A stretch of 64,000 nucleotides of DNA from Phycisphaerae bacterium. GTDB lineage: Bacteria > Planctomycetota > Phycisphaerae > WQYP01. A model generated the notes under the pieces. It saw only the letters and a program-made list of their open reading frames with translations, did not search any database and had not been told where the DNA came from. Shown here piece by piece: positions 18 through 39,828 of the stretch. The stretch's first letter is position 1, and each line of letters opens with the position of its first letter. Position numbers and translations under genes: made by a program. The stretch lies in contig JBBRWV010000001.1 of the NCBI GenBank assembly GCA_038248985.1, positions 3,091-67,090 of the forward strand. The letters are read 5' to 3'.

Positions 18-2426
18 GTGGTATCTTATGCGGGTATGCGTGCGGGAATGGACAGACTGAGCCTGTTTTTGCGGATGAATCCACTGGTGCCGGCGGTTGT
101 GGCGCTGGGGTCGGGGGTGGGTATAGGGGGGGTAGTGGGGGGGGTGAAGGGGGTGGAGGTGGGGGTCGCGCTGGGGGGCGCGGGGGTGTTGTGGGTGGGT
201 TGGGCGGTAGCGGAGGGGGTGCTGAGGGGGGTAAGGCAGGTGGTGGCGACTCATTTTTGTTTGCTCATGGGATTCATGTTTGCGGGGATCGGACTGTGGC
301 AAATGGACCAGCAACAAGGTGGGTGGACGGAGGTGGCGCGGTTCGTCCAAGGAGAAAATGCGACACCGATCAAGGCGCGGGTGGAGGTGGTCGTGCCGCC
401 GGAGGATGAAGCGGCGACGCATGGGAATATATACTGGGTGGGGAAGGTGCGGCGGGTGTGGACGAGCGCGGGGTGGGTGGAGAGTGAGGGGATGGTGCGG
501 GTGAAATCGGCAGCGGGGGTGAGCGTGGCGCGGGGGCAGGTATTGGAACTGCATGGTTGGGCGCACCGTCCGGCGGAGGCGCGGAATCCGGGGGCGTTTG
601 ATATGCGGAAGTATTTGGGTGCATCGCGGATTTTTGTGGAGATCAGCGCCAAGAAAGACAATGCGCTGACGCTGGTGGAGGAGACGAATGATGGGGGCGG
701 GGCGCGGTGGGTGGATCGGGCGCGGATGTTTGTGCGGGGGAAACTTTTAGAGCATACGGTGCGGGTGGATGGAATATCGGGGCGGGCGATGGTGGCGCTG
801 CTGCTGGGGTATCGCGATCCGTCGATTGCGGAAGTGGGGGAGTCGTTTACGAATGCGGGGGTGGCGCATCTGTTGGCGATTTCGGGAAGTCATGTGGTTT
901 TTCTGGCGGGGATTTTGTGGGGCGCGATGCGGGTGGTGCCGCTCGGGCCGCGGATGAAGCTGGTGTTGGTAGCGAGCGTGTTGCTGGGGTACGTGGCGCT
1001 GACGCCGTGCGGGCCGCCGGTGCTGCGGGCGGGGGTGGCGATGGGGATGATGGTGGCGGGTCGGCTGATGAATCGGCGGGCGAGTTTGCTGAACATGTTG
1101 GCGGCGGCGCTGGCGGTGGTGGTGATTCTGCGGCCGACGGATATGGGGGATGCGGGATGCCAGTTGAGTTTTGTGAGCACTGCGGGATTGATATTGCTGG
1201 GTGAGCGGTGCTATGCGTGGGGGACTTCGTGGTGGTGGCTGAGGCGGGAGGAGGAGATCGTGGCGATCAGCGGGCGGAGGTGGTGGCGCTGGCGGTTGGG
1301 GGCGATCAAGGTGTTGGTGGGGCTGCTGGTGGCTAATGGGATCGGGACTTTGACGGCGACGCCGCTGGTGCTGTGGCATTTCAATGCGTGGAATCCGCTG
1401 GCGGTCTTGACGGGGATGGTGGCGTTGCCGCTGGTGAGCATGACGATGGTGGCGTCGGTGGTGCAGTTGGTGGCGGCGTTGATTTCGGGGACGGTGGCGG
1501 GGTGGATTGCGCCGGTGACGACGGGGGTGGCGACGGTGATGGTGTGGGGAGTGGATTGGTTGTCGCGTGTGCCGGGGGCGGTGGTGGCGATGCGCGGGCC
1601 GCCGTGGTGGTGCGTGGGATTGTGCTATGGAATCATGCTGGTGTGGGTGGTGCGACGGTGGGCGGGGTGGTCGCGAGCGACGGTGAGCGTGCTGGGGATG
1701 ATGGTGGTGGTGAGCGTGGTGGGGTGGTATGCGTGGACGCTGCCGCGGGGGGAGTTGGAGTTGGAGGTACTGACGGTGGCGAAGGGGAGTGCGGTGGTGG
1801 TGCGGATGCCGGACGGTGGGGTGTGGGCGGTGAATTGCGGATCGCAGGAGGCGCCGGGGGTTTTGCGGAACGTGATGCGACCGGCGCTGCGGGTGATGGG
1901 CGTGGGGCGTTTGGAGGGGGTGGTGATTTCAAGTGCAGACAAGGTACATGCGAGCGATGCGGGGGACATGGTGGAGCGTTTCAGGCCGGGAAGGGTTTTT
2001 GTGAGCGAGCGGGTGGCGCGACATGCGGACTGGACGCTGCCGGGGACGGAAGTGATGGACGGGGCGCGGAAGGTGAGGGCGAAGGTGGAGACGCTGCGCG
2101 GGGGGGATGAGGTGCGGGTGGGGGAATGCGCGATGCGGGTGATGTGGCCGACGGGGGAGGTGGGGGAGGCATCGTTGATGCTGCGGCTGGAGTATCGGGG
2201 GAAGGTGATCTGGCTGGTGAATCCGAAGAGCGAGTTGGTGTGGCGGAGTTTGGGGGCGCGCGGGGCGATGAATGGGGAGGTGGTGGTTTTGCTGGGGCCG
2301 GGACGGGAGGGGAGTGAGGCGGAGATTGGGAAGATGGTGGGGGGTGAGGTGGTTTCGAGCGAAGAGAGGAGTTGGGTGCGGGTGCGGGTTGGGCGTGAGG
2401 GGGAGGTGAGGTTGGAGAGGCATTGA
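18..2426 (+). CDS. comEC: DNA internalization-related competence protein ComEC/Rec2 (competence channel domain + C-terminal metallo-beta-lactamase domain)
   Basis: Motifs GVAHLLAISGSHV and VLLGYVALT, a polytopic membrane core, and a C-terminal LEVLTVAKGSAVVVRMPDG...VNCG metallo-beta-lactamase-like region. The Gly-rich N-terminus is low complexity. Confidence 0.85.
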   Translation: MVSYAGMRAGMDRLSLFLRMNPLVPAVVALGSGVGIGGVVGGVKGVEVGVALGGAGVLWVGWAVAEGVLRGVRQVVATHFCLLMGFMFAGIGLWQMDQQQGGWTEVARFVQGENATPIKARVEVVVPPEDEAATHGNIYWVGKVRRVWTSAGWVESEGMVRVKSAAGVSVARGQVLELHGWAHRPAEARNPGAFDMRKYLGASRIFVEISAKKDNALTLVEETNDGGGARWVDRARMFVRGKLLEHTVRVDGISGRAMVALLLGYRDPSIAEVGESFTNAGVAHLLAISGSHVVFLAGILWGAMRVVPLGPRMKLVLVASVLLGYVALTPCGPPVLRAGVAMGMMVAGRLMNRRASLLNMLAAALAVVVILRPTDMGDAGCQLSFVSTAGLILLGERCYAWGTSWWWLRREEEIVAISGRRWWRWRLGAIKVLVGLLVANGIGTLTATPLVLWHFNAWNPLAVLTGMVALPLVSMTMVASVVQLVAALISGTVAGWIAPVTTGVATVMVWGVDWLSRVPGAVVAMRGPPWWCVGLCYGIMLVWVVRRWAGWSRATVSVLGMMVVVSVVGWYAWTLPRGELELEVLTVAKGSAVVVRMPDGGVWAVNCGSQEAPGVLRNVMRPALRVMGVGRLEGVVISSADKVHASDAGDMVERFRPGRVFVSERVARHADWTLPGTEVMDGARKVRAKVETLRGGDEVRVGECAMRVMWPTGEVGEASLMLRLEYRGKVIWLVNPKSELVWRSLGARGAMNGEVVVLLGPGREGSEAEIGKMVGGEVVSSEERSWVRVRVGREGEVRLERH

Positions 2427-2589
2427 AGGAATTGCCGAGGGTGGATTTCGGGCGAGGGTGGCTTGGGCGAATCGGTGGAGTTCGAGGCGTGGGGCGGGGG
2501 CGACGGTGAGGGCGATCATGCGTACTGCGGCTGCGCCGACGGCTACTTCGACGACGACGACGTCGCGGGCAGGATGCCCGCTGGGACTG

Positions 2590-3290
2590 CGGACAGTTTA
2601 GCCTAATTGTGCCTCGATTTTTAAGCGGGTATTGCACCTGCTATCGGGCAAATGGTACAACCAAAGCACGAAAGGGTCAGAAAATGAAAACTGGTTTTAT
2701 TTATTCGAGGATTTTGAGTGAGGGACAAAGGGACGGGACGGGATTAACCAGACAGACGGGAGCCGAGTTGGTGAATTACATCTTGTCACTCGGTCACGTT
2801 GTGGGCGGTACGCCAAAATTGCAGGACGTTGCCAGTGGTTATCACGGCGATAATCTTGTGGGGGATTTAGGGATATTTTTGGATGCAGTAGAATCGGGTC
2901 TGGTTAAATCTGGTGAAAGTTTTTTGGCAATTGAGGATTGGGATAGGCTAACCCGCTTGACTCCGTGGGATGCCATTCCCACTTTTCAATCTATCATAAA
3001 TCATAATGTTGACCTTTTGACATACATGGATGGCGAGGCAAGGTGGTATACGTTGGCAAGTCTTAAAGGCAATCCCAACCTACTTGATGAAGTTTTAGAC
3101 GGCATGAAGTCAGCACATTATTTTAGCAAGAAATTAGCAGCACGAATTAAGGGAATGTATAAACGGAAGATTGCGGAAAATGCAATTTATTCCGGTAGCG
3201 TCCCAAGTTGGATTGTTAAAAAATATGGAGCAATAAATCCTCGTTCGGGGAGATCGTCAATTATTGGATTTGAATTGGGTATAGGGGGCG
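2590..3290. mobile_element. Low-GC (~45%) inserted segment, possible remnant of a mobile element carrying a resolvase-like gene
   Basis: Composition drops abruptly to AT-rich between comEC and the GT2 gene (flanks ~65% GC). The ORF inside reads through the islet boundary into GC-rich DNA. Confidence 0.35.
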
Positions 3291-3346
3291 ATGCTTGGTG
3301 GGGTGACGGGGGATTGGGTTGTGGGGTATCATCGGGGAATGGATGA
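2684..3346 (+). CDS. Serine recombinase/resolvase-like protein, atypical N-terminal motif, probably 3'-truncated or degenerate
   Basis: MKTGFIYSRILSEGQ resembles resolvase YxRVSTxxQ, but the nucleophile position holds Leu. SGYHGDNLVGDLG...GESFLAIEDWDRLTRL matches the resolvase SG...RPG...GDxLVVxxLDRLxR core. An RBS-like AAAGGG lies upstream of ATG 2684. The C-terminal tail GDAWWGDGGLG is translated from GC-rich flank overlapping the next gene. Confidence 0.45.
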   Translation: MKTGFIYSRILSEGQRDGTGLTRQTGAELVNYILSLGHVVGGTPKLQDVASGYHGDNLVGDLGIFLDAVESGLVKSGESFLAIEDWDRLTRLTPWDAIPTFQSIINHNVDLLTYMDGEARWYTLASLKGNPNLLDEVLDGMKSAHYFSKKLAARIKGMYKRKIAENAIYSGSVPSWIVKKYGAINPRSGRSSIIGFELGIGGDAWWGDGGLGCGVSSGNG

Positions 3347-4172
3347 TCAACCGAAGTTTTTGGTGTCGGGCTGCGTGATCTGCAAGAACAATGCCGACAA
3401 GATTGCGCGGACTTTGGATTCGCTGAGGTGGTGCGACGAGATCGTGGTGGTGGATTCGGGATCGACGGATGGGACGGTGGGGGTGTGCGAGGGGCATGGG
3501 AGCGGGAAGGTGCGGGTGATTAAGAGTGGATGGCGGTGGTTCAATAAGCAGCGGGAGTATGCGGCGTCGGCGTGCCGGAACGCGTGGGTGCTGATGCTGG
3601 ATGCGGACGAGGAGTGCGGAGAGGAGTTGCGGGGGGAGATTTTGGGGTTGACGGAGGAGGCGCGGCGGGGGGTGGGTTTGTTCAAGATGCCACGGAAGAA
3701 TTTTGTGATGAAGCGTCATGTGCGGGTGTGGGGGCCGGATTTTCAGACGCGGTTGGTGCATAGGGAGCGGGTGGAGTGGGATGCGCGGAGTATTCCGGAG
3801 ATACGGAAGGTGAAGGCGGAATTTCGAGTGGGGAAGTTGAAGGGGGCGATTTTGCACAATCGATTGACGGAGTTGCAGGCGACGGATTTCAATGATGGGG
3901 TGAAGCAGGCGATGTACGCGGTGGAGCTGGCGGAGCATATGCGTTTGAAGGGGAAACGCGGCGGGTGGGTGAATCTGTTCTTCCGGCCGTGGATGACGTT
4001 TTTGAAATATTATGTTTTGCGCGGGGCGTTTCTGGAGGGGCGGTTTGGGCTGGCGATTGCGTATAAGACGACGATCATGGTGATGTTGAAGTACAGTGTT
4101 TTGTATGCGGAGGGGATGAAGGGGGGCGAGAACCAAGAAACAGGGAGCAAGGAGCAAAACGAGCACGGGTGA
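3339..4172 (+). CDS. Family 2 glycosyltransferase (LPS/cell-envelope polysaccharide biosynthesis type)
   Basis: N-terminus [23 protein letters not shown]...[13 protein letters not shown] is the GT2 signature, plus LMLDADE (DxD-like). The likely start is ATG 3339 (MDDQPKF). Confidence 0.8.
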
Positions 4173-4219
4173 GGGGTGAAGGGGCAGCGGTAAAAGTGGA
4201 AGCATCATTAATGCTGGGG

Positions 4220-4729
4220 TTGTCGCCGGTGATTTCGATCGAGCAGAAGACGGTGGGGAAGAATCCGCGTTCGACGGTGGGGACAATGACGGATATTTCC
4301 CCGTATTTGAATTTGCTGTATGCGACGTCGGCGGAGGCGCATTGCCCGCGTGGGTATTTGACGCTGGGGCAGTCGTCGACGATGTTGTCGGGCGGGGAGG
4401 CGCAGCGGATCAAGCTGGCGAATGAATTGTCGAAGCTGCGGCGGGGGCAGCATGCGCTGTACATTCTGGATGAGCCGACGACGGGGCTGCATCGGGCGGA
4501 TATTGCGAAGCTGCTGGAGTGTTTGGCGCGGTTGGAGGATGCGGGGCATTCGGTGCTGGTGATCGAGCATCACCTGGATGTGATCAAGACGGCGGATCAT
4601 ATTATTGATTTGGGGCCGGAGGGCGGGCATTCAGGCGGAGAGGTGATTGCGGAGGGCTCGCCGGAGGAGTTGAGCCGGAGCAAGCATTCGCATACGGGGC
4701 GGTATTTGCGGACGCATATGAAGGTGTGA
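4220..4729 (+). pseudogene. uvrA: Remnant of the excinuclease UvrA C-terminus, with an internal deletion and no N-terminal ~75% of the protein
   Basis: [31 protein letters not shown] matches the UvrA [21 protein letters not shown]..ELFA region, then jumps directly to [25 protein letters not shown]...[12 protein letters not shown]...[23 protein letters not shown]...TGRYL, the UvrA C-terminal ABC signature, Walker B and H-loop. The zinc finger and Walker A are missing. It sits directly after an intact GT2 gene. Confidence 0.6.
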
Positions 4730-33960: not shown

Positions 33961-34733
33961 ATGCCTGTTCCCTCCGCCATCCTCCAAGATCCACGCTTCC
34001 AACTCATCACCGCTGACACCTTGCCCCCTGCGCTTATTGAAAATCCTCTCCACCCCCAACCCCGCCAAATTCACGAGTGGTTTCTGGAAAATAATCTCCC
34101 CACCTCACCCACCACCTCGCCTCCCACCTGGTTCCCCCCCTCCACCTCCTGGCCCTGGTGGCCCGCGAAGTATCTTTACCCCGCCCCGGACATATCCTCT
34201 GGATTGGCCGCAGATGTTGGCCCACCTTTCAAATGCTCTCCGATCCCGTGGCCCACAGCGCCCTGCTTCAACACAGCATCTTCCTTGACCCCGCCACCGA
34301 TGATGAACGCTTCTGGGCCATTGGCCAGGCCTTCCGCTGCCCCGGCGTCCGCGTCGTGGTCGCCGATGGAGCGAACCTTTCCCCCACCCTCAGCCGACGC
34401 CTCCAATTGGCCGCCGAAGCGGGTCACACCGTCGGATTATTGGCCCGCCCCTTGTGGGAACAAGATGTCCCCTCCTGGGCCCACGCACGCTGGCTCGCGA
34501 AACCCCAACCCTCCGGGCTTGCCTCTTCCCCGGGCGCATCTTCCTGGCAAATTGAACTCCTGTGCTGCAAAGGGCACCCAGCGGGCCACGACGCTTCGCC
34601 GCAATGGATATTGGATTGGAAATACGAGGTGTTCCGTGGAACAAATACTTTCCATCTTTCTACCCTCCTGGGATGTGGATCTGCATCAACGCAAATCCCC
34701 GCCCCCCAAAAATCCAGTCTTAAAATCGCGTAG
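33961..34733 (+). CDS. imuA: ImuA (SulA/RecA-like mutasome component), apparently frameshifted. The N-terminus is in frame 1 (33961 to ~34136) and the rest in frame 3 (to 34733), with a C7 homopolymer at 34134-34140.
   Basis: Frame 3 carries the ImuA hallmark VVVADGANLSPTLSRRLQLAAEAGHTVGLLARP and ILWIG...ERFWAIGQAFRCPG. The frame-1 start (ATG 33961, good RBS, SOS box) encodes TLPPALIENPLHPQPRQIHEWFLE, resembling the ImuA N-terminal region. Inserting one C into the C7 tract fuses both parts into a ~258-aa ImuA-sized protein. Confidence 0.7.
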
Positions 34734-36171
34734 GCCCGCCCTCCTTCTCGTCACCCCTCACTCACTACAGCAACGGGTGGCACGCTGCTGCCCGCTCGCC
34801 CGCCACGCCGGCATCACCCCCGGCATGAATCTGGCCGAAGCCCGCGCCCTCTGTCCCGTACATATCGCTCCTTTCGATCCCCCACGCAGCCGCAAAACCC
34901 TCGAACTTCTCGCCCAGTGGGCCCTCCGTTTCTCCCCCGTGGTCTCCGTTGATCCCACCCCCTGGGGCTACTACACCGACCCCTGCCCCGATGGACTCCT
35001 CCTCAATGTCACCGGTGAAGCCCCTCTCTTTGGAGGCGAACCCATCTTGCTCACCGAAATTCGCACGCAGTTGCAGCGCCTTGGCTTTGCCTCACGCCTC
35101 GCTGTCGCCCCCACCGTCGGAGCCGCCTGGGCCATCGCCCATTTCGGCCCTCATTCCACGTCCATCCTTTCTCATGAACACCTTCAAAATGCCCTTGCTC
35201 CTCTCCCCGTTGCTTCCTTGCGGATCACCCCCGAACTCTGCACGGCCATGCGCGATGTCGGCATCGAATACGTTCGTCACCTCCTCGCGATCCCCCGGCC
35301 AAATCTCCTGGTGCGCTATGGTAAAGAATTGCTCCTGCGCCTCGATCAAGCCTTTGGACGCACTCCCGAACTCGTCACCCCCATTCACCCCACCGCCCCC
35401 CTTCAGGCCTCCCGCGTGTTTGAGGGACCCGCCATACAAATCGAAGCCATCCTCTTAACCGTCCAAACATTGCTCGAAGATCTCACCCACCATCTCCTCC
35501 AACAAGAAAGCGGTGTGCGGGGCCTCCGCCTAGAATTGCTTCGCGCCCACGCCCCACCCGTCTTTCAGGAATGGATATTGGCACGCCCCAGCCGCGATAA
35601 AAAACATCTCTGGGAATTGCTACGCACCAAAGTCGAACGCCTGCACCTCGGGTACGGCGTCGAAGCCGTGAAGATGACCGCCTACTGGACGGAAGCCATC
35701 CCCCATCAACAACGGGATGCGTGGGAAACCGCAAATGACCATGACGAATCATTCGCCGCCTTGCTCGATACCCTCATCGGGCGCTGGGGTTCCAATCGCG
35801 TATTGTCCCCCCGCACCGTCGCCTCCCACACCCCCGAGGTCGCCCGCCAGTTTCGTCCCCTCACTGAAAAATCCGCCCCACCCGCCGACTTGGCCCTCCT
35901 CGATCGCCCCTCCGTCCTCTTTGATCCACCCGAACCCGCCGAGGCCTTTGCCCTCCAACCCGATCGTCCCCCCGTTTATCTCCGCTGGAAAGGCCAGGGC
36001 CATGAGCTCCTCACCGGCCAGGGCCCCGAACGCATTGTCACCGAATGGTGGGGTGCCCATCGTTCCAGCACCCGCGATTACTACAAAGTGCAAATCCTCG
36101 ATGGATCCTGGATCTGGACTTTTCAGGAAGTGGAAACCGGACGTTGGTTCATTCACGGTCTGTGGGCCTAG
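34720..36171 (+). CDS. imuB: ImuB (Y-family polymerase-like mutasome protein). The start codon is uncertain and overlaps the imuA stop.
   Basis: LLLVTPHSLQQRVARCCPLARHAGITPGMNLAEARALCP...LELLAQWALRFSPVVSVDP...LLNVTGEAPLFGG matches the ImuB/Y-family N-terminus. There is no canonical ATG/GTG/TTG in frame near the expected start, and the first in-frame GTG at ~34785 looks too late. Confidence 0.75.
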   Translation, partial: LKSRRPALLLVTPHSLQQRVARCCPLARHAGITPGMNLAEARALCPVHIAPFDPPRSRKTLELLAQWALRFSPVVSVDPTPWGYYTDPCPDGLLLNVTGEAPLFGGEPILLTEIRTQLQRLGFASRLAVAPTVGAAWAIAHFGPHSTSILSHEHLQNALAPLPVASLRITPELCTAMRDVGIEYVRHLLAIPRPNLLVRYGKELLLRLDQAFGRTPELVTPIHPTAPLQASRVFEGPAIQIEAILLTVQTLLEDLTHHLLQQESGVRGLRLELLRAHAPPVFQEWILARPSRDKKHLWELLRTKVERLHLGYGVEAVKMTAYWTEAIPHQQRDAWETANDHDESFAALLDTLIGRWGSNRVLSPRTVASHTPEVARQFRPLTEKSAPPADLALLDRPSVLFDPPEPAEAFALQPDRPPVYLRWKGQGHELLTGQGPERIVTEWWGAHRSSTRDYYKVQILDGSWIWTFQEVETGRWFIHGLWA

Positions 36172-36178
36172 GTGCAAT

Positions 36179-39100
36179 ATGCCCGAAATCCAGCATTCTA
36201 AAATCCTCCCCGACGTCACCTTCACCAAGCCTCCCCCCGCCGCCGTGCCCTATGCCGAACTCCAGGTGACCACCAACTTCTCCTTTCTCCGCGGCGGCAG
36301 CCATGCCGAAGAAATCATCGCCCGCGCCGGAGAACTCGGTTGTCGTGCTGTCGCCATCACCGATATCAACACCCTCGCCGGCATCGTCCGCGGAAAATCC
36401 GCCGCCCGCAAAGCCGAAATTCAATACATCGTCGGCTGCCACCTTCAAGTCCAAGCCGTCCTCGGAACCCTCACCTCCGTCCCCGCTTCCTTGCCCTATA
36501 TCTCTTTGCTCGTATATCCCACCGATAGAGACTCCTATGGGCGCCTCTGCCGATTGCTCACCTTTGGCAAACGCCGCGCCGCCAAAGGCCAGTGCCATTT
36601 GAATCTTCAGGATGTCGTCGATCACCACCAGGGATTGCTCGCCGTCGTCCTGCCACCCCCGCTTATTTCTGACGCCTTTCACGAAATCCTTCAGACCCTC
36701 CAACACATCTTTGACGACGACCGCCTCTCCCTGGCCGCCTCCTGTTCCTATGACGGACACCACCATCACCGCCTGGCCCAACTCTCTGCCCTCTCTCAAT
36801 TACTTTCCATCCCCTTGGTCGCGACCAACGACGTTCACTATCACATCCCCCAGCGCAAACCCTTACAGGATGTCCTCACCTGTATCCGCCTCGGATGCAC
36901 CCTTGACGAGGCCGGTTTCGCTTTGTTTGCCAATGCCGAGCGCCACGTCAAAGGCCCCGACGAAATGGCCCGCCTCTTTGCTCAATACCCCCACGCCATT
37001 CAGCGCACCATCCACATCGCCCAACGCGCCGCGGGCTTCTCCCTCGACCAGCTCAAATATGAATACCCCGCCGAGATTTGTCCCCCCGGAAAAACCTTCA
37101 TGCAGCATCTCCGCAACCTCACCTGGGAAGGTGCCGCTAAACACTACCCGGCCGGCCTCCCCGAGATCGTCCGCCAACGCGTTGAACATGAATTTGAACT
37201 GATCGAATCCCTCAACTACCCCGCCTATTTCTTGACCGTCAATGACCTCGTCGCGTTCGCTCGCTCCCGCGGAATTCTCTGCCAGGGCCGCGGTGCCGCC
37301 GCCAATTCCGCCGTCTGCTATTGCTTGGGCATCACCGCCGTTGACCCCGCCCGCTTCGATATGCTCATCGAACGATTCATCAGCAAGGAACGCAATGAAC
37401 CGCCCGACATCGATATCGACTTCGAACACGAACGCCGCGAAGAAGTCATTCAATATCTCTACCAGAAATATGGACGCGATCGCGCCGCTCTCACCGCCGA
37501 AGTCGTCACCTATCGCCGCCGCAGCGCCATCCGCGAAGTCGGTAAAGCCCTCGGCCTCTCCCTCGATTGCGTCGATCGCCTCGCCAAATCCGGCGACTGG
37601 TGGCAAGACGGCATCCTCGACGATGCTCAACTACACGCCCTGGGCTTTGACACCCAGAACCCCACCCTCCGCCAAACCGTACAACTCGCCAGCGAACTCG
37701 TCGGCTTCCCTCGCCATCTCTCACAACATGTTGGCGGATTTGTCATTAGCCAAAAACCCCTCTGCGAAATCGTCCCCATTGAAAACGCCGCCATGCCCGA
37801 CCGCACCATCATTGAATGGGACAAAGACGATATCGATGAAATGGGCATGCTCAAAATCGACGTCCTCGGCCTTGGAATGCTCACCTGTATCCGCAAAGCC
37901 ATTGACTTGGTCAACCAATCCGATCGCCGCGCCGGTGGCCCCGGCATCCTGCAATATCACTCCATCCCTCCCGAAGACCCCCTCGTCTATGACATGCTCT
38001 GCCGGGCCGATTCCGTCGGCGTCTTCCAAGTCGAATCCCGCGCCCAGATGACCATGCTCCCACGCCTTAAACCCTGCTGCTTCTACGACCTCGTTATCGA
38101 AGTCGCCATCGTTCAACCCGGACCCATTCACGGCGGCATGGTCCACCCCTACCTGCGTCGCCGCACCGGTGAAGAACCCGTCGTCTATCCCGATGAACGC
38201 ATCAAAGCCGTCCTCGGCAGAACCCTCGGCGTGCCCCTCTTTCAAGAACAGGCAATGCAAATGTGCATCGTCGCCGCCGGCTTCACCCCCGGCGAAGCCG
38301 ACCTCCTCCGCCGCGCCATGGCCGCCTGGAAACGCCAAGGCGATCTCATCCACCGCTTCGGTAAAAAAATGATCGCCGGCATGACCCACCACGGATACTC
38401 CCTCGAATTCGCCCAACGCTGCTTTCAGCAAATCCAGGGATTCAGCGAATACGGCTTCCCCGAATCCCATGCCGCCAGCTTTGCCTTGCTCGTCTACGTC
38501 TCTGCATGGCTGAAATGCCGACACCACGCCGCCTTCGCCGCCGCCCTCCTCAACAGTCAGCCCATGGGCTTCTATCAACCCGCCCAAATCGTCCGCGATG
38601 CCCAGGAACACGGCGTCACCGTCCGGCCCATTGATGTCAACCACAGCACCTGGGATTCCACCCTCGAATATGATGCCGCGGGAAAAAACCCCATCCTCCG
38701 TCTGGGCATGCGCCTCGTTCACACCTTGCGCCAAACCGAAGCCCAGAAAATTACGGCGGCGGTAGCGCGGGCCGGACCTCTGAAAAACATGCTTGATTTA
38801 TGGCGTTTCAGTGGTGCCCGCGTAGCCACTCTGCGCGCCCTCGCCTCCGCCGACGCTTTTGTCTCCATGAACCTGAATCGCCAAACGGCTCTCTGGTCGG
38901 TGGGCCAACTCAAGGATGCCCCCTTGCCCATGTTCGATGAAATGGACCCCCACGAGGACGCCGCGGAACTCCCCTTTATCCCCCCTCTCACCCGCGTCAT
39001 TCAAGACTATGGAGCCACCGGCTTGTCGCTGAAAGCCCATCCCCTCTCCTTTGCTCGCCCGCAACTGGATCTCCGCCATGTCACCCCCAACGGCGATCTC

Positions 39101-39415
39101 GCCGATGCCGCGCACTGCCCCCACGGACGAAGGCTCGTCGTCGCCGGCCTCGTCCTCGTCCGCCAGCGCCCCGCCACCGCCAGCGGCATCCTCTTCATGA
39201 CCATCGAAGACGAGACCGGCATCGCCAACCTCGTCATTCGCCCCGCCATCTACGACCGTTGGCGCCAATCAATTCGTCACGGCATCACCATCGCCGCCTG
39301 GGGAAAAGTGGAGCGCCAAGGTCAGGTAGTTCACCTCCTCGTCGAACGCGTAAACAATCTCGCGACCCTCATCCAAACCGACCCCCCAAAAATCCACACC
39401 CGCAACTTTCACTAA
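36179..39415 (+). CDS. dnaE2: Error-prone DNA polymerase DnaE2 (ImuC), PolIIIalpha family
   Basis: PHP-domain N-terminus YAELQVTTNFSFLRGGSHAEEIIARAGELGCRAVAITDINTLAGIVRG. PolIII alpha core LKIDVLGLGMLTCI, VGVFQVESRAQM and PGPIHGGMVHPYLRRR, plus a C-terminal OB fold. Length 1078 aa. ATG 36179 follows the imuB stop directly. Confidence 0.9.
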   Translation: MPEIQHSKILPDVTFTKPPPAAVPYAELQVTTNFSFLRGGSHAEEIIARAGELGCRAVAITDINTLAGIVRGKSAARKAEIQYIVGCHLQVQAVLGTLTSVPASLPYISLLVYPTDRDSYGRLCRLLTFGKRRAAKGQCHLNLQDVVDHHQGLLAVVLPPPLISDAFHEILQTLQHIFDDDRLSLAASCSYDGHHHHRLAQLSALSQLLSIPLVATNDVHYHIPQRKPLQDVLTCIRLGCTLDEAGFALFANAERHVKGPDEMARLFAQYPHAIQRTIHIAQRAAGFSLDQLKYEYPAEICPPGKTFMQHLRNLTWEGAAKHYPAGLPEIVRQRVEHEFELIESLNYPAYFLTVNDLVAFARSRGILCQGRGAAANSAVCYCLGITAVDPARFDMLIERFISKERNEPPDIDIDFEHERREEVIQYLYQKYGRDRAALTAEVVTYRRRSAIREVGKALGLSLDCVDRLAKSGDWWQDGILDDAQLHALGFDTQNPTLRQTVQLASELVGFPRHLSQHVGGFVISQKPLCEIVPIENAAMPDRTIIEWDKDDIDEMGMLKIDVLGLGMLTCIRKAIDLVNQSDRRAGGPGILQYHSIPPEDPLVYDMLCRADSVGVFQVESRAQMTMLPRLKPCCFYDLVIEVAIVQPGPIHGGMVHPYLRRRTGEEPVVYPDERIKAVLGRTLGVPLFQEQAMQMCIVAAGFTPGEADLLRRAMAAWKRQGDLIHRFGKKMIAGMTHHGYSLEFAQRCFQQIQGFSEYGFPESHAASFALLVYVSAWLKCRHHAAFAAALLNSQPMGFYQPAQIVRDAQEHGVTVRPIDVNHSTWDSTLEYDAAGKNPILRLGMRLVHTLRQTEAQKITAAVARAGPLKNMLDLWRFSGARVATLRALASADAFVSMNLNRQTALWSVGQLKDAPLPMFDEMDPHEDAAELPFIPPLTRVIQDYGATGLSLKAHPLSFARPQLDLRHVTPNGDLADAAHCPHGRRLVVAGLVLVRQRPATASGILFMTIEDETGIANLVIRPAIYDRWRQSIRHGITIAAWGKVERQGQVVHLLVERVNNLATLIQTDPPKIHTRNFH

Positions 39416-39828
39416 AAAAAAATATCCTTCTCCCGCAGCGCCCGCCCATTCGTATCGACCACGCTTGCGGGGTACTCCGTCGTCGTCGCCCCCCCCCGTA
39501 GGCTCGCCAATCTCCCGATTGGCCGTCATCGTCTCGTCGTCGTCGTCAGGCGACGGCGGTGCTGATGTCGGTGCTACGGACGGCCCAGCAGCAGAGTCGT
39601 CCGTTGAGGGAGACGTTCAAGACCCTGCCCTGCTGACGGTGAGCTGGGCGCGGAAGAATCCGGGAGTGCTGACCGATACGCTGGACAATACTGTTTAAGA
39701 GGGAGGGGCGGTAAACAGTTACGAATGTGTCCTGGAAGGGGGTGGGATTTGGCTTTCGTTTTGGGCGATCACTGGCCGATAGCTAGGCGTAGGTGCCCAC
39801 CAGGTACCTCTGGCCGATGTCATAACTC

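Follow-up and report, generated by a model that had tools for sequence, protein, structure and literature searches.

A 691-bp low-GC islet between comEC and a glycosyltransferase gene in a Phycisphaerae bacterium is probably the relic of a mobile element with a large serine recombinase gene

Large serine recombinases have the domain architecture PF00239 (Resolvase), PF07508 (Recombinase) and PF13408 (Zn_ribbon_recom). The YbcK-like group among them occurs in lambdoid phages, where its members are annotated as YbcK or 'large serine recombinase', and on plasmids; it includes E. coli YbcK of prophage DLP12 and the 'recombinase family protein' of Pseudomonas, Serratia and Pantoea plasmids. The structurally characterised serine integrases (SPbeta SprA/YokA, PhiC31, A118, TP901-1 and Bxb1-type) are complete, active enzymes that work with attP/attB sites and a directionality factor. 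Small serine recombinases (gamma-delta/Tn3 resolvase, Sin, Hin/Gin; PF00239) are about 180-200 aa long and end in a helix-turn-helix domain. Mutation of the nucleophile abolishes cleavage in serine recombinases. Deletion remnants of prophages and islands, such as grounded integrase pseudogenes next to host genes, are of foreign composition and carry at their edge an integrase-type gene that is truncated and inactivated by point mutations and whose further decay differs between strains.

Here we compare with these systems an islet of low GC content in the DNA of a Phycisphaerae bacterium. The whole stretch analysed, 64,000 nucleotides (64 kb) in length, is called the window. An earlier note, made from the letters of the window alone, had described a resolvase-like ORF in this segment and had read it either as a decayed or truncated remnant of a mobile element or as a domesticated, catalytically inactive recombinase fold. 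The features of the locus are as follows.

18-2426, + strand: comEC, the left neighbour, encoding 802 aa, with 50% G on the coding strand (PF03772 and PF13567).
2564-2580, + strand: GC-rich hairpin GCGGGCA-GGA-TGCCCGC, read from the sequence, 13 bp 5' of the left edge of the islet.
2593-3283, + strand: low-GC islet of foreign composition, 691 bp, as given by the change-point, the lowest-GC window and third-position GC.
2593-2683, + strand: 91-bp leader 5' of the recombinase ATG, within the low-GC segment and of islet composition.
2684-3283, + strand: codons 1-200 of a truncated large serine recombinase gene, from phmmer, hhalign, tblastn, AlphaFold and Foldseek.
2714-2716, + strand: codon 11, TTG (Leu), at the catalytic-serine position, from the alignment column, with the codon read from the sequence.
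3063-3065, + strand: AAA run that is AA (1-bp deletion) in contig L008 of another metagenome, from blastn and a global alignment against 2927-4321.
3284-3346, + strand: read-through tail of 20 residues and a stop in G-rich host DNA, after the GC rise at 3283; no relative aligns further.
3339-4172, + strand: GT2, a family-2 glycosyltransferase gene of host composition, the right neighbour (PF00535, 3.6e-16).

The islet has a composition foreign to its surroundings. Its boundaries at 2593 and 3283 were obtained from a two-boundary likelihood segmentation of 1500-4500 and separate a GC content of 0.431 inside from 0.629 outside. Among all 691-bp windows across the 64 kb (mean GC 0.594, sd 0.031) the islet has the lowest GC, about 5.3 sd under the mean, and is the only one with GC < 0.50. 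In a 200-bp profile GC changes from 0.65-0.71 in comEC to 0.40-0.50 at about 2600-3300 and to ~0.6 after that. The base composition of the islet is A.285, C.157, G.272 and T.287. Third-position GC of the islet ORF is 0.40 versus 0.77-0.81 in comEC, GT2 and the next ORF, and its third-position GC skew is +0.28 versus +0.69 to +0.81 in the neighbouring genes, GT2 having values of 0.77 and +0.69. The 500-bp bin that contains the islet is a 2.6-sd outlier from an otherwise smooth local skew ramp. Both the low-GC segment claimed earlier and the anomaly expected of it in a composition scan are therefore present. A low cytosine content of the islet caused by heavy C-to-T decay was also considered and rejected, as the changes needed would create stops and the ORF has none.

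The window as a whole displays an extreme sawtooth of GC skew, which is most pronounced at third codon positions. Between 1 and 34 kb the + strand skew declines in a straight line from +0.50 to -0.55, with a slope of -0.0325 per kb (r=-0.97). A step to about -0.3 follows at 34-39 kb, and at about 39550-39700 the skew is reset, jumping to +0.35 within ~300 bp in the intergenic region after dnaE2. A second ramp at 40000-64000 falls to -0.28 (slope -0.025 per kb, r=-0.95). The flat -0.3 step coincides with a block at 33961-39415, in which a 736-aa ORF precedes and overlaps the ORF at 35717-39415 (+), a putative error-prone DnaE2-type polymerase as judged from its N-terminal sequence. Third-position skew changes from +0.81 (comEC, 50% G) to -0.84 across the window independently of gene orientation, with first and second codon positions and AT skew moving in the same sense. 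No DnaA-box cluster was found at the skew jump. The shape of the skew recalls the 'N-domain' profiles of mammalian replication domains, and no report of such a sawtooth in bacteria was found in the literature. Related Phycisphaerae contigs with ComEC or GT2 homologues, which come from other samples and assemblers (L004-L007, L009 and L010), have very strong GC skew as well; two maintain a constant +0.3 to +0.5 over 11-12 kb despite mixed gene orientation and others ramp or step (L006 from -0.02 to +0.52 over 8 kb, L004 from +0.33 to -0.37). Strong skew is thus a feature of the clade and not an artefact of one contig.

The genes on either side of the islet are those named in the earlier note. 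The left neighbour matches the ComEC families PF03772 (1.2e-46) and PF13567 (DUF4131) and aligns over 89-99% of its length with Phycisphaerae ComEC proteins of 800-810 aa; judged by sequence, comEC is apparently intact. The ComEC protein of the window and its ~800-aa Phycisphaerae homologues gave no Pfam match for the C-terminal metallo-beta-lactamase domain, which the same search found in ComEC proteins of Gemmataceae and other planctomycetes. The hairpin at 2564-2580 may represent the comEC terminator and was not called by a terminator scan because no T-run follows it. On the right, the GT2 start at ATG 3339, 56 bp past the truncation point of the recombinase gene, is fixed by a 98%-identical homologue of 277 aa, and the next-nearest homologues are Phycisphaerae proteins of 61-63% identity. 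The 91-bp leader may be the original end of the element or a promoter region; no repeat, RNA family or tRNA was found in 2593-2683. Around the islet, a search for direct or inverted repeats, as had been proposed, returned only short chance matches, no tRNA or Rfam family was found at or near it, and a promoter and terminator scan gave nothing above shuffle expectation.

Sequence comparison and predicted structure both identify the islet ORF as a homologue of the catalytic domain found in the YbcK-like group of large serine recombinases. The frame extends over 2609-3346 and, from the likely ATG at 2684, encodes 220 aa. Codons 1-200 (2684-3283) contain 0 stops, whereas each of the other five frames has 9-17 and shuffled sequences have 13.6 on average (P ~1e-6); the segment therefore is, or recently was, coding. 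It encodes the catalytic domain followed by helix E, and of the recombinase domain it retains just the beginning (P174, W176, up to about residue 200). The motifs YSRILSEGQ and GESFLAIEDWDRLTRL are present as originally quoted. A phmmer search of 1.84 billion cluster representatives identified 2139 proteins with E<=1e-3, of which 109 reach E<=1e-10; the top match other than the ORF itself has an E-value of 3e-17 and 33-42% identity. Nearly all matches are 500-600 aa long, and their alignment is confined to the N-terminal ~180 residues. A Pfam scan covered ten relatives, namely eight phmmer matches and, found via tblastn, E. coli YbcK and a Pseudomonas plasmid recombinase; 10/10 carry PF00239, PF07508 and PF13408. 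Comparison of the ORF with an alignment of the relatives only (hhalign) placed ORF residues 1-180 on family columns 6-186 of 540 with a probability of 99.94% and an E-value of 2.8e-37, and the family profile in turn matches the PDB integrases SPbeta, A118, PhiC31 and TP901-1 at up to 3e-34. An AlphaFold2 model based on a 150-sequence alignment, and dependent on that homologue alignment, reached a pLDDT of 86.8 (>93 for residues 1-165) and contains the predicted mixed alpha/beta catalytic fold and long helix E. When the model was compared with the PDB by Foldseek, each of the 31 top-ranking matches was a serine recombinase; those to structurally characterised serine integrases have E-values of 6e-6 to 8e-4 and a probability of 1.00.

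The recombinase homology is visible only through exhaustive phmmer searches, profile comparison or fold. Direct scans of the ORF against Pfam-A, NCBIfam and PHROG gave no usable match, with PF00239 unmatched even at E<=1. Likewise, phmmer against PDB sequences yielded only chance allophycocyanin matches, a word-indexed search of 5.8 billion proteins returned the ORF itself as the sole hit and AlphaFold on the single sequence produced an unusable model (pLDDT 38). As the direct family scans are empty, the HMMER check against PF00239 that had been suggested for this ORF would wrongly have led to rejection of the recombinase idea. PF00239 homology follows by transitivity, because the phmmer relatives (3e-17) carry PF00239 over the same residues, and hhalign agrees. 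With the predicted serine-recombinase fold, these results uphold the serine-recombinase reading of the earlier note.

The catalytic serine is replaced by leucine. In the motif Y7-S8-R9-I10-L11, Leu11 lies two residues past the conserved Arg at the position equivalent to Ser10 of gamma-delta resolvase. This column holds Ser in 144/144 relatives that have a residue there and Leu in the query only, so that the leucine noticed at the nucleophile position is a true departure from the family. The TTG codon differs from TCG by one C-to-T transition. Active-site residues R9, D87, R88 and R91 (R8, D67, R68 and R71 of gamma-delta resolvase) are kept, and their columns are 100% conserved in the relatives. 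Across the 37 columns that are at least 80% conserved, the ORF has 10 changes compared to a mean of 2.8 (sd 2.4) in relatives, a number that is ~3 sd above the family mean and is reached by 1 of 144 relatives. Rare or absent substitutions include G78E, never seen in the family, G108N and E147F. The excess points to relaxed constraint, though divergence of the lineage might account for it instead.

The gene breaks off at the compositional boundary. When 149 full-length relatives were searched against the window by tblastn, 133 matches were obtained, on the + strand and within 2684-3283, and the furthest alignment end is base 3283, identical to the independently derived GC change-point. The median length of the relatives is 535 aa and homology ends at codon 200; therefore ~335 codons are gone, and with them the recombinase domain, zinc ribbon and coiled coil. 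No other recombinase fragment (PF07508, PF13408 or coiled coil) was found in the 64 kb by tblastn with the same 149 relatives. Alternatively, a rearrangement might have split the gene and left its 3' part beyond the window. Past 3283 the frame reads through 63 nt of host DNA up to TGA 3344-3346, overlapping the GT2 start by 8 nt, and the description of the 3' end as running into host DNA and into the next gene was accurate. Residues 199-220 have a pLDDT < 50. Assignment of residues 201-220 to the domain was tried and rejected: MAFFT scattered them over G, W and C columns, and tblastn, hhalign and pLDDT all end the homology at or before residue 200.

Independent assemblies contain the same junctions. 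A contig from the Logan assembly of SRR19962012 (L001) is 100% identical to the window over 100-3439 and spans both junctions. A second contig from another metagenome (L008, JGI 3300009083, 1394 bp) is 99.0% identical to 2927-4321 and holds the 3' half of the islet with an identical right junction to host DNA. The islet is consequently not an assembly chimera. The A lost at 3063-3065 is the sole difference of L008 within the islet; it shifts the frame at about codon 127-128, with a stop a few codons on, and in L008 the called gene stops at base 171. The reading frame is thus not maintained, as seen in one short metagenomic contig at a 3-base homopolymer. Substitutions between the window and L008 number 0 in 357 bp of islet and 13 in 1038 bp of flank (p ~0.02, hypergeometric estimate).

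Further differences and a second broken gene are found to the right of the islet. In GT2, 5/7 differences between the window and L008 are amino acid-changing, and three of them give Gly in L008 (AGG->GGG, TGG->GGG, GAA->GGA). Although small in number, these differences fit a continuing, protein-altering drive toward G on the + strand. Directly after GT2, a 186-aa ORF at 4169-4729 (+) represents an internally deleted UvrA fragment. Two of its stretches match UvrA equivalog models, the best to 820-941 of 943, with 246 bits against a cut-off of 1147, and its start is also present in L008. Two gene relics so close together (within 1 kb) suggest that this stretch is deletion-prone.

Relatives at the level of the locus are scarce. 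The only close relative, L008 (99%), also holds the islet. The nearest ComEC relatives are 36-47% identical, and in five of them lutABC is conserved upstream and the downstream genes vary; in two GT2 relatives (61-63% identity) the genes upstream are different ones. A search of genome contigs with ComEC found no relative. Two metagenome scans with exact 24-mers from the 5' end of the islet and the 3' end of comEC, aimed at the left junction and at codon 11 in the sister population, gave no match. Phage genomes searched by blastn likewise gave no match, no close relative was found in viral contigs, and the cluster names of the nearest recombinases pointed to no donor taxon. Besides the ORF itself, no protein >42% identical to it was found among 15 billion.

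Together, these observations make it very probable that the islet is what remains, without function, of a mobile element acquired by horizontal transfer, and that it comprises the edge of the element and codons 1-200 of its large serine recombinase gene. Of the two readings first offered, that of a decayed or truncated remnant is favored by the homology, the cut at codon 200 on a composition boundary, the lost nucleophile and the frameshift in the sister population. An element carrying a YbcK-like large serine recombinase gene at its edge would have entered the comEC-GT2 interval 13 bp past the hairpin. A deletion would then have taken everything from within the recombinase gene to 56 bp before the GT2 start; deletions extending further would have destroyed GT2. 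A TCG->TTG transition would have removed the nucleophile, and a frameshift would have been gained later in one population. The frame would still be open only because the event is recent, ending at the first stop in host DNA. A recent arrival is indicated because the islet has not acquired the strong local mutational bias of the host. Integration and later deletion are what we infer from this arrangement; neither an empty site nor attachment sites or repeats at the flanks were detected. Attachment sites of serine integrases leave just a 2-bp overlap and are unrecognisable without the partner site. Without the nucleophile and every DNA-binding module, the product cannot act as a recombinase and, as predicted from its sequence, can neither cleave nor bind DNA in that role. 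The remnant is at most a passive source of sequence upstream of GT2.

The open 220-codon frame and the retained R9, D87, R88 and R91 also resemble a recently domesticated protein. The ORF might then encode a non-catalytic protein of ~200 aa, for example one that regulates as a dimer or inhibits related recombinases, or the segment might be kept as a promoter or translational-coupling remnant for GT2. Such a role would agree with 0 stops where 13.6 are expected, with 27/37 conserved columns kept including the four Arg and Asp residues, with a fold that is predicted with confidence, with the 8-nt overlap between the ORF stop and the GT2 ATG and with the absence of substitutions in 357 bp of islet between populations that differ at 13 positions in 1038 bp of flank. 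Against it, the frame of the sister population is shifted at about codon 127-128, and the number of changes at conserved positions is ~3 sd above the family mean. In addition, nothing >42% identical exists among the 15 billion proteins searched, so that there is no conserved family of such short proteins, and the C-terminal 20 residues are accidental host read-through with pLDDT <50. Domestication, the second reading of the earlier note, is consistent with the open frame and the kept Arg and Asp residues, and the frameshifted allele and the excess of conserved-site changes speak against it; we consider it improbable. If true, it would represent a natural case of the serine-recombinase fold in non-catalytic use.

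A native gene with an unusual composition, or a chimera in which the assembly joined reads of another organism, would accord with the lack of flanking repeats and of an empty-site comparison and with the empty direct Pfam, NCBIfam and PHROG scans. These explanations are very unlikely given that L001 covers both junctions at 100% and L008, from another sample, the right junction at 99%, that the gene family is typical of phages and plasmids (YbcK in lambdoid phages, plasmid recombinases) and that the islet departs from the smooth host trend in both GC and skew. The chance that the ORF is a still-active recombinase, using another nucleophile such as Ser12, which adjoins the lost one among otherwise intact catalytic residues, or DNA-binding domains from another protein, is practically negligible, as position 12 is Ser or Thr in 131/144 relatives beside an invariant Ser11 and hence no substitute nucleophile, and as the DNA-binding part (PF07508, PF13408 and coiled coil) is absent with no second fragment in the window.

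As a relic, the islet is one more mobile-element fossil, a divergent and broken member of a well-known kind, and its correct annotation is a pseudogene fragment rather than 'hypothetical protein' or 'resolvase'. It illustrates that a decayed domain can evade Pfam, NCBIfam and PHROG and yet be unambiguous by exhaustive search, profile comparison and fold. The coincidence of the end of homology with the composition change-point at base 3283 gives the presumed deletion breakpoint at single-base resolution. The islet is also an internal clock: the mutational bias of the host, which locally favors G over C to an extreme degree, is not yet visible in it, and its arrival is thus recent relative to the process that shaped the neighbouring genes.

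Among known systems, the ORF is closest in sequence to the YbcK-like group, with which its residues 1-180 align at 28-42% identity and share the motifs YxRxS(S/T)xxQ, GxSxxRQ, DxGxS, LGxFL, ExxDRLxR and PxW. It differs from this group in having only the first 200 of ~535 codons, without recombinase domain, zinc ribbon and coiled coil, in the Ser to Leu change of the nucleophile, in 'SAHYFS' in place of 'RAHEES' and in having no relative >42% identical. With the structurally characterised serine integrases the ORF shares the predicted catalytic fold, whereas the islet shows none of their completeness, activity, attP/attB sites or directionality factor. The fold, the Arg/Asp/Arg/Arg residues and a length of ~180-200 aa are also common to small serine recombinases; these keep the serine and end in a helix-turn-helix domain, while the ORF ends in host read-through and by sequence belongs to the large-recombinase branch and not the small one, with no PF00239 match at E<=1. 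Compared to deletion remnants of prophages and islands, the islet is unusually small (691 bp) and without cargo or a detectable attachment-site scar, but it resembles them in its foreign composition and in the integrase-type gene at its edge, which is truncated and inactivated by point mutations and whose further decay differs between strains.
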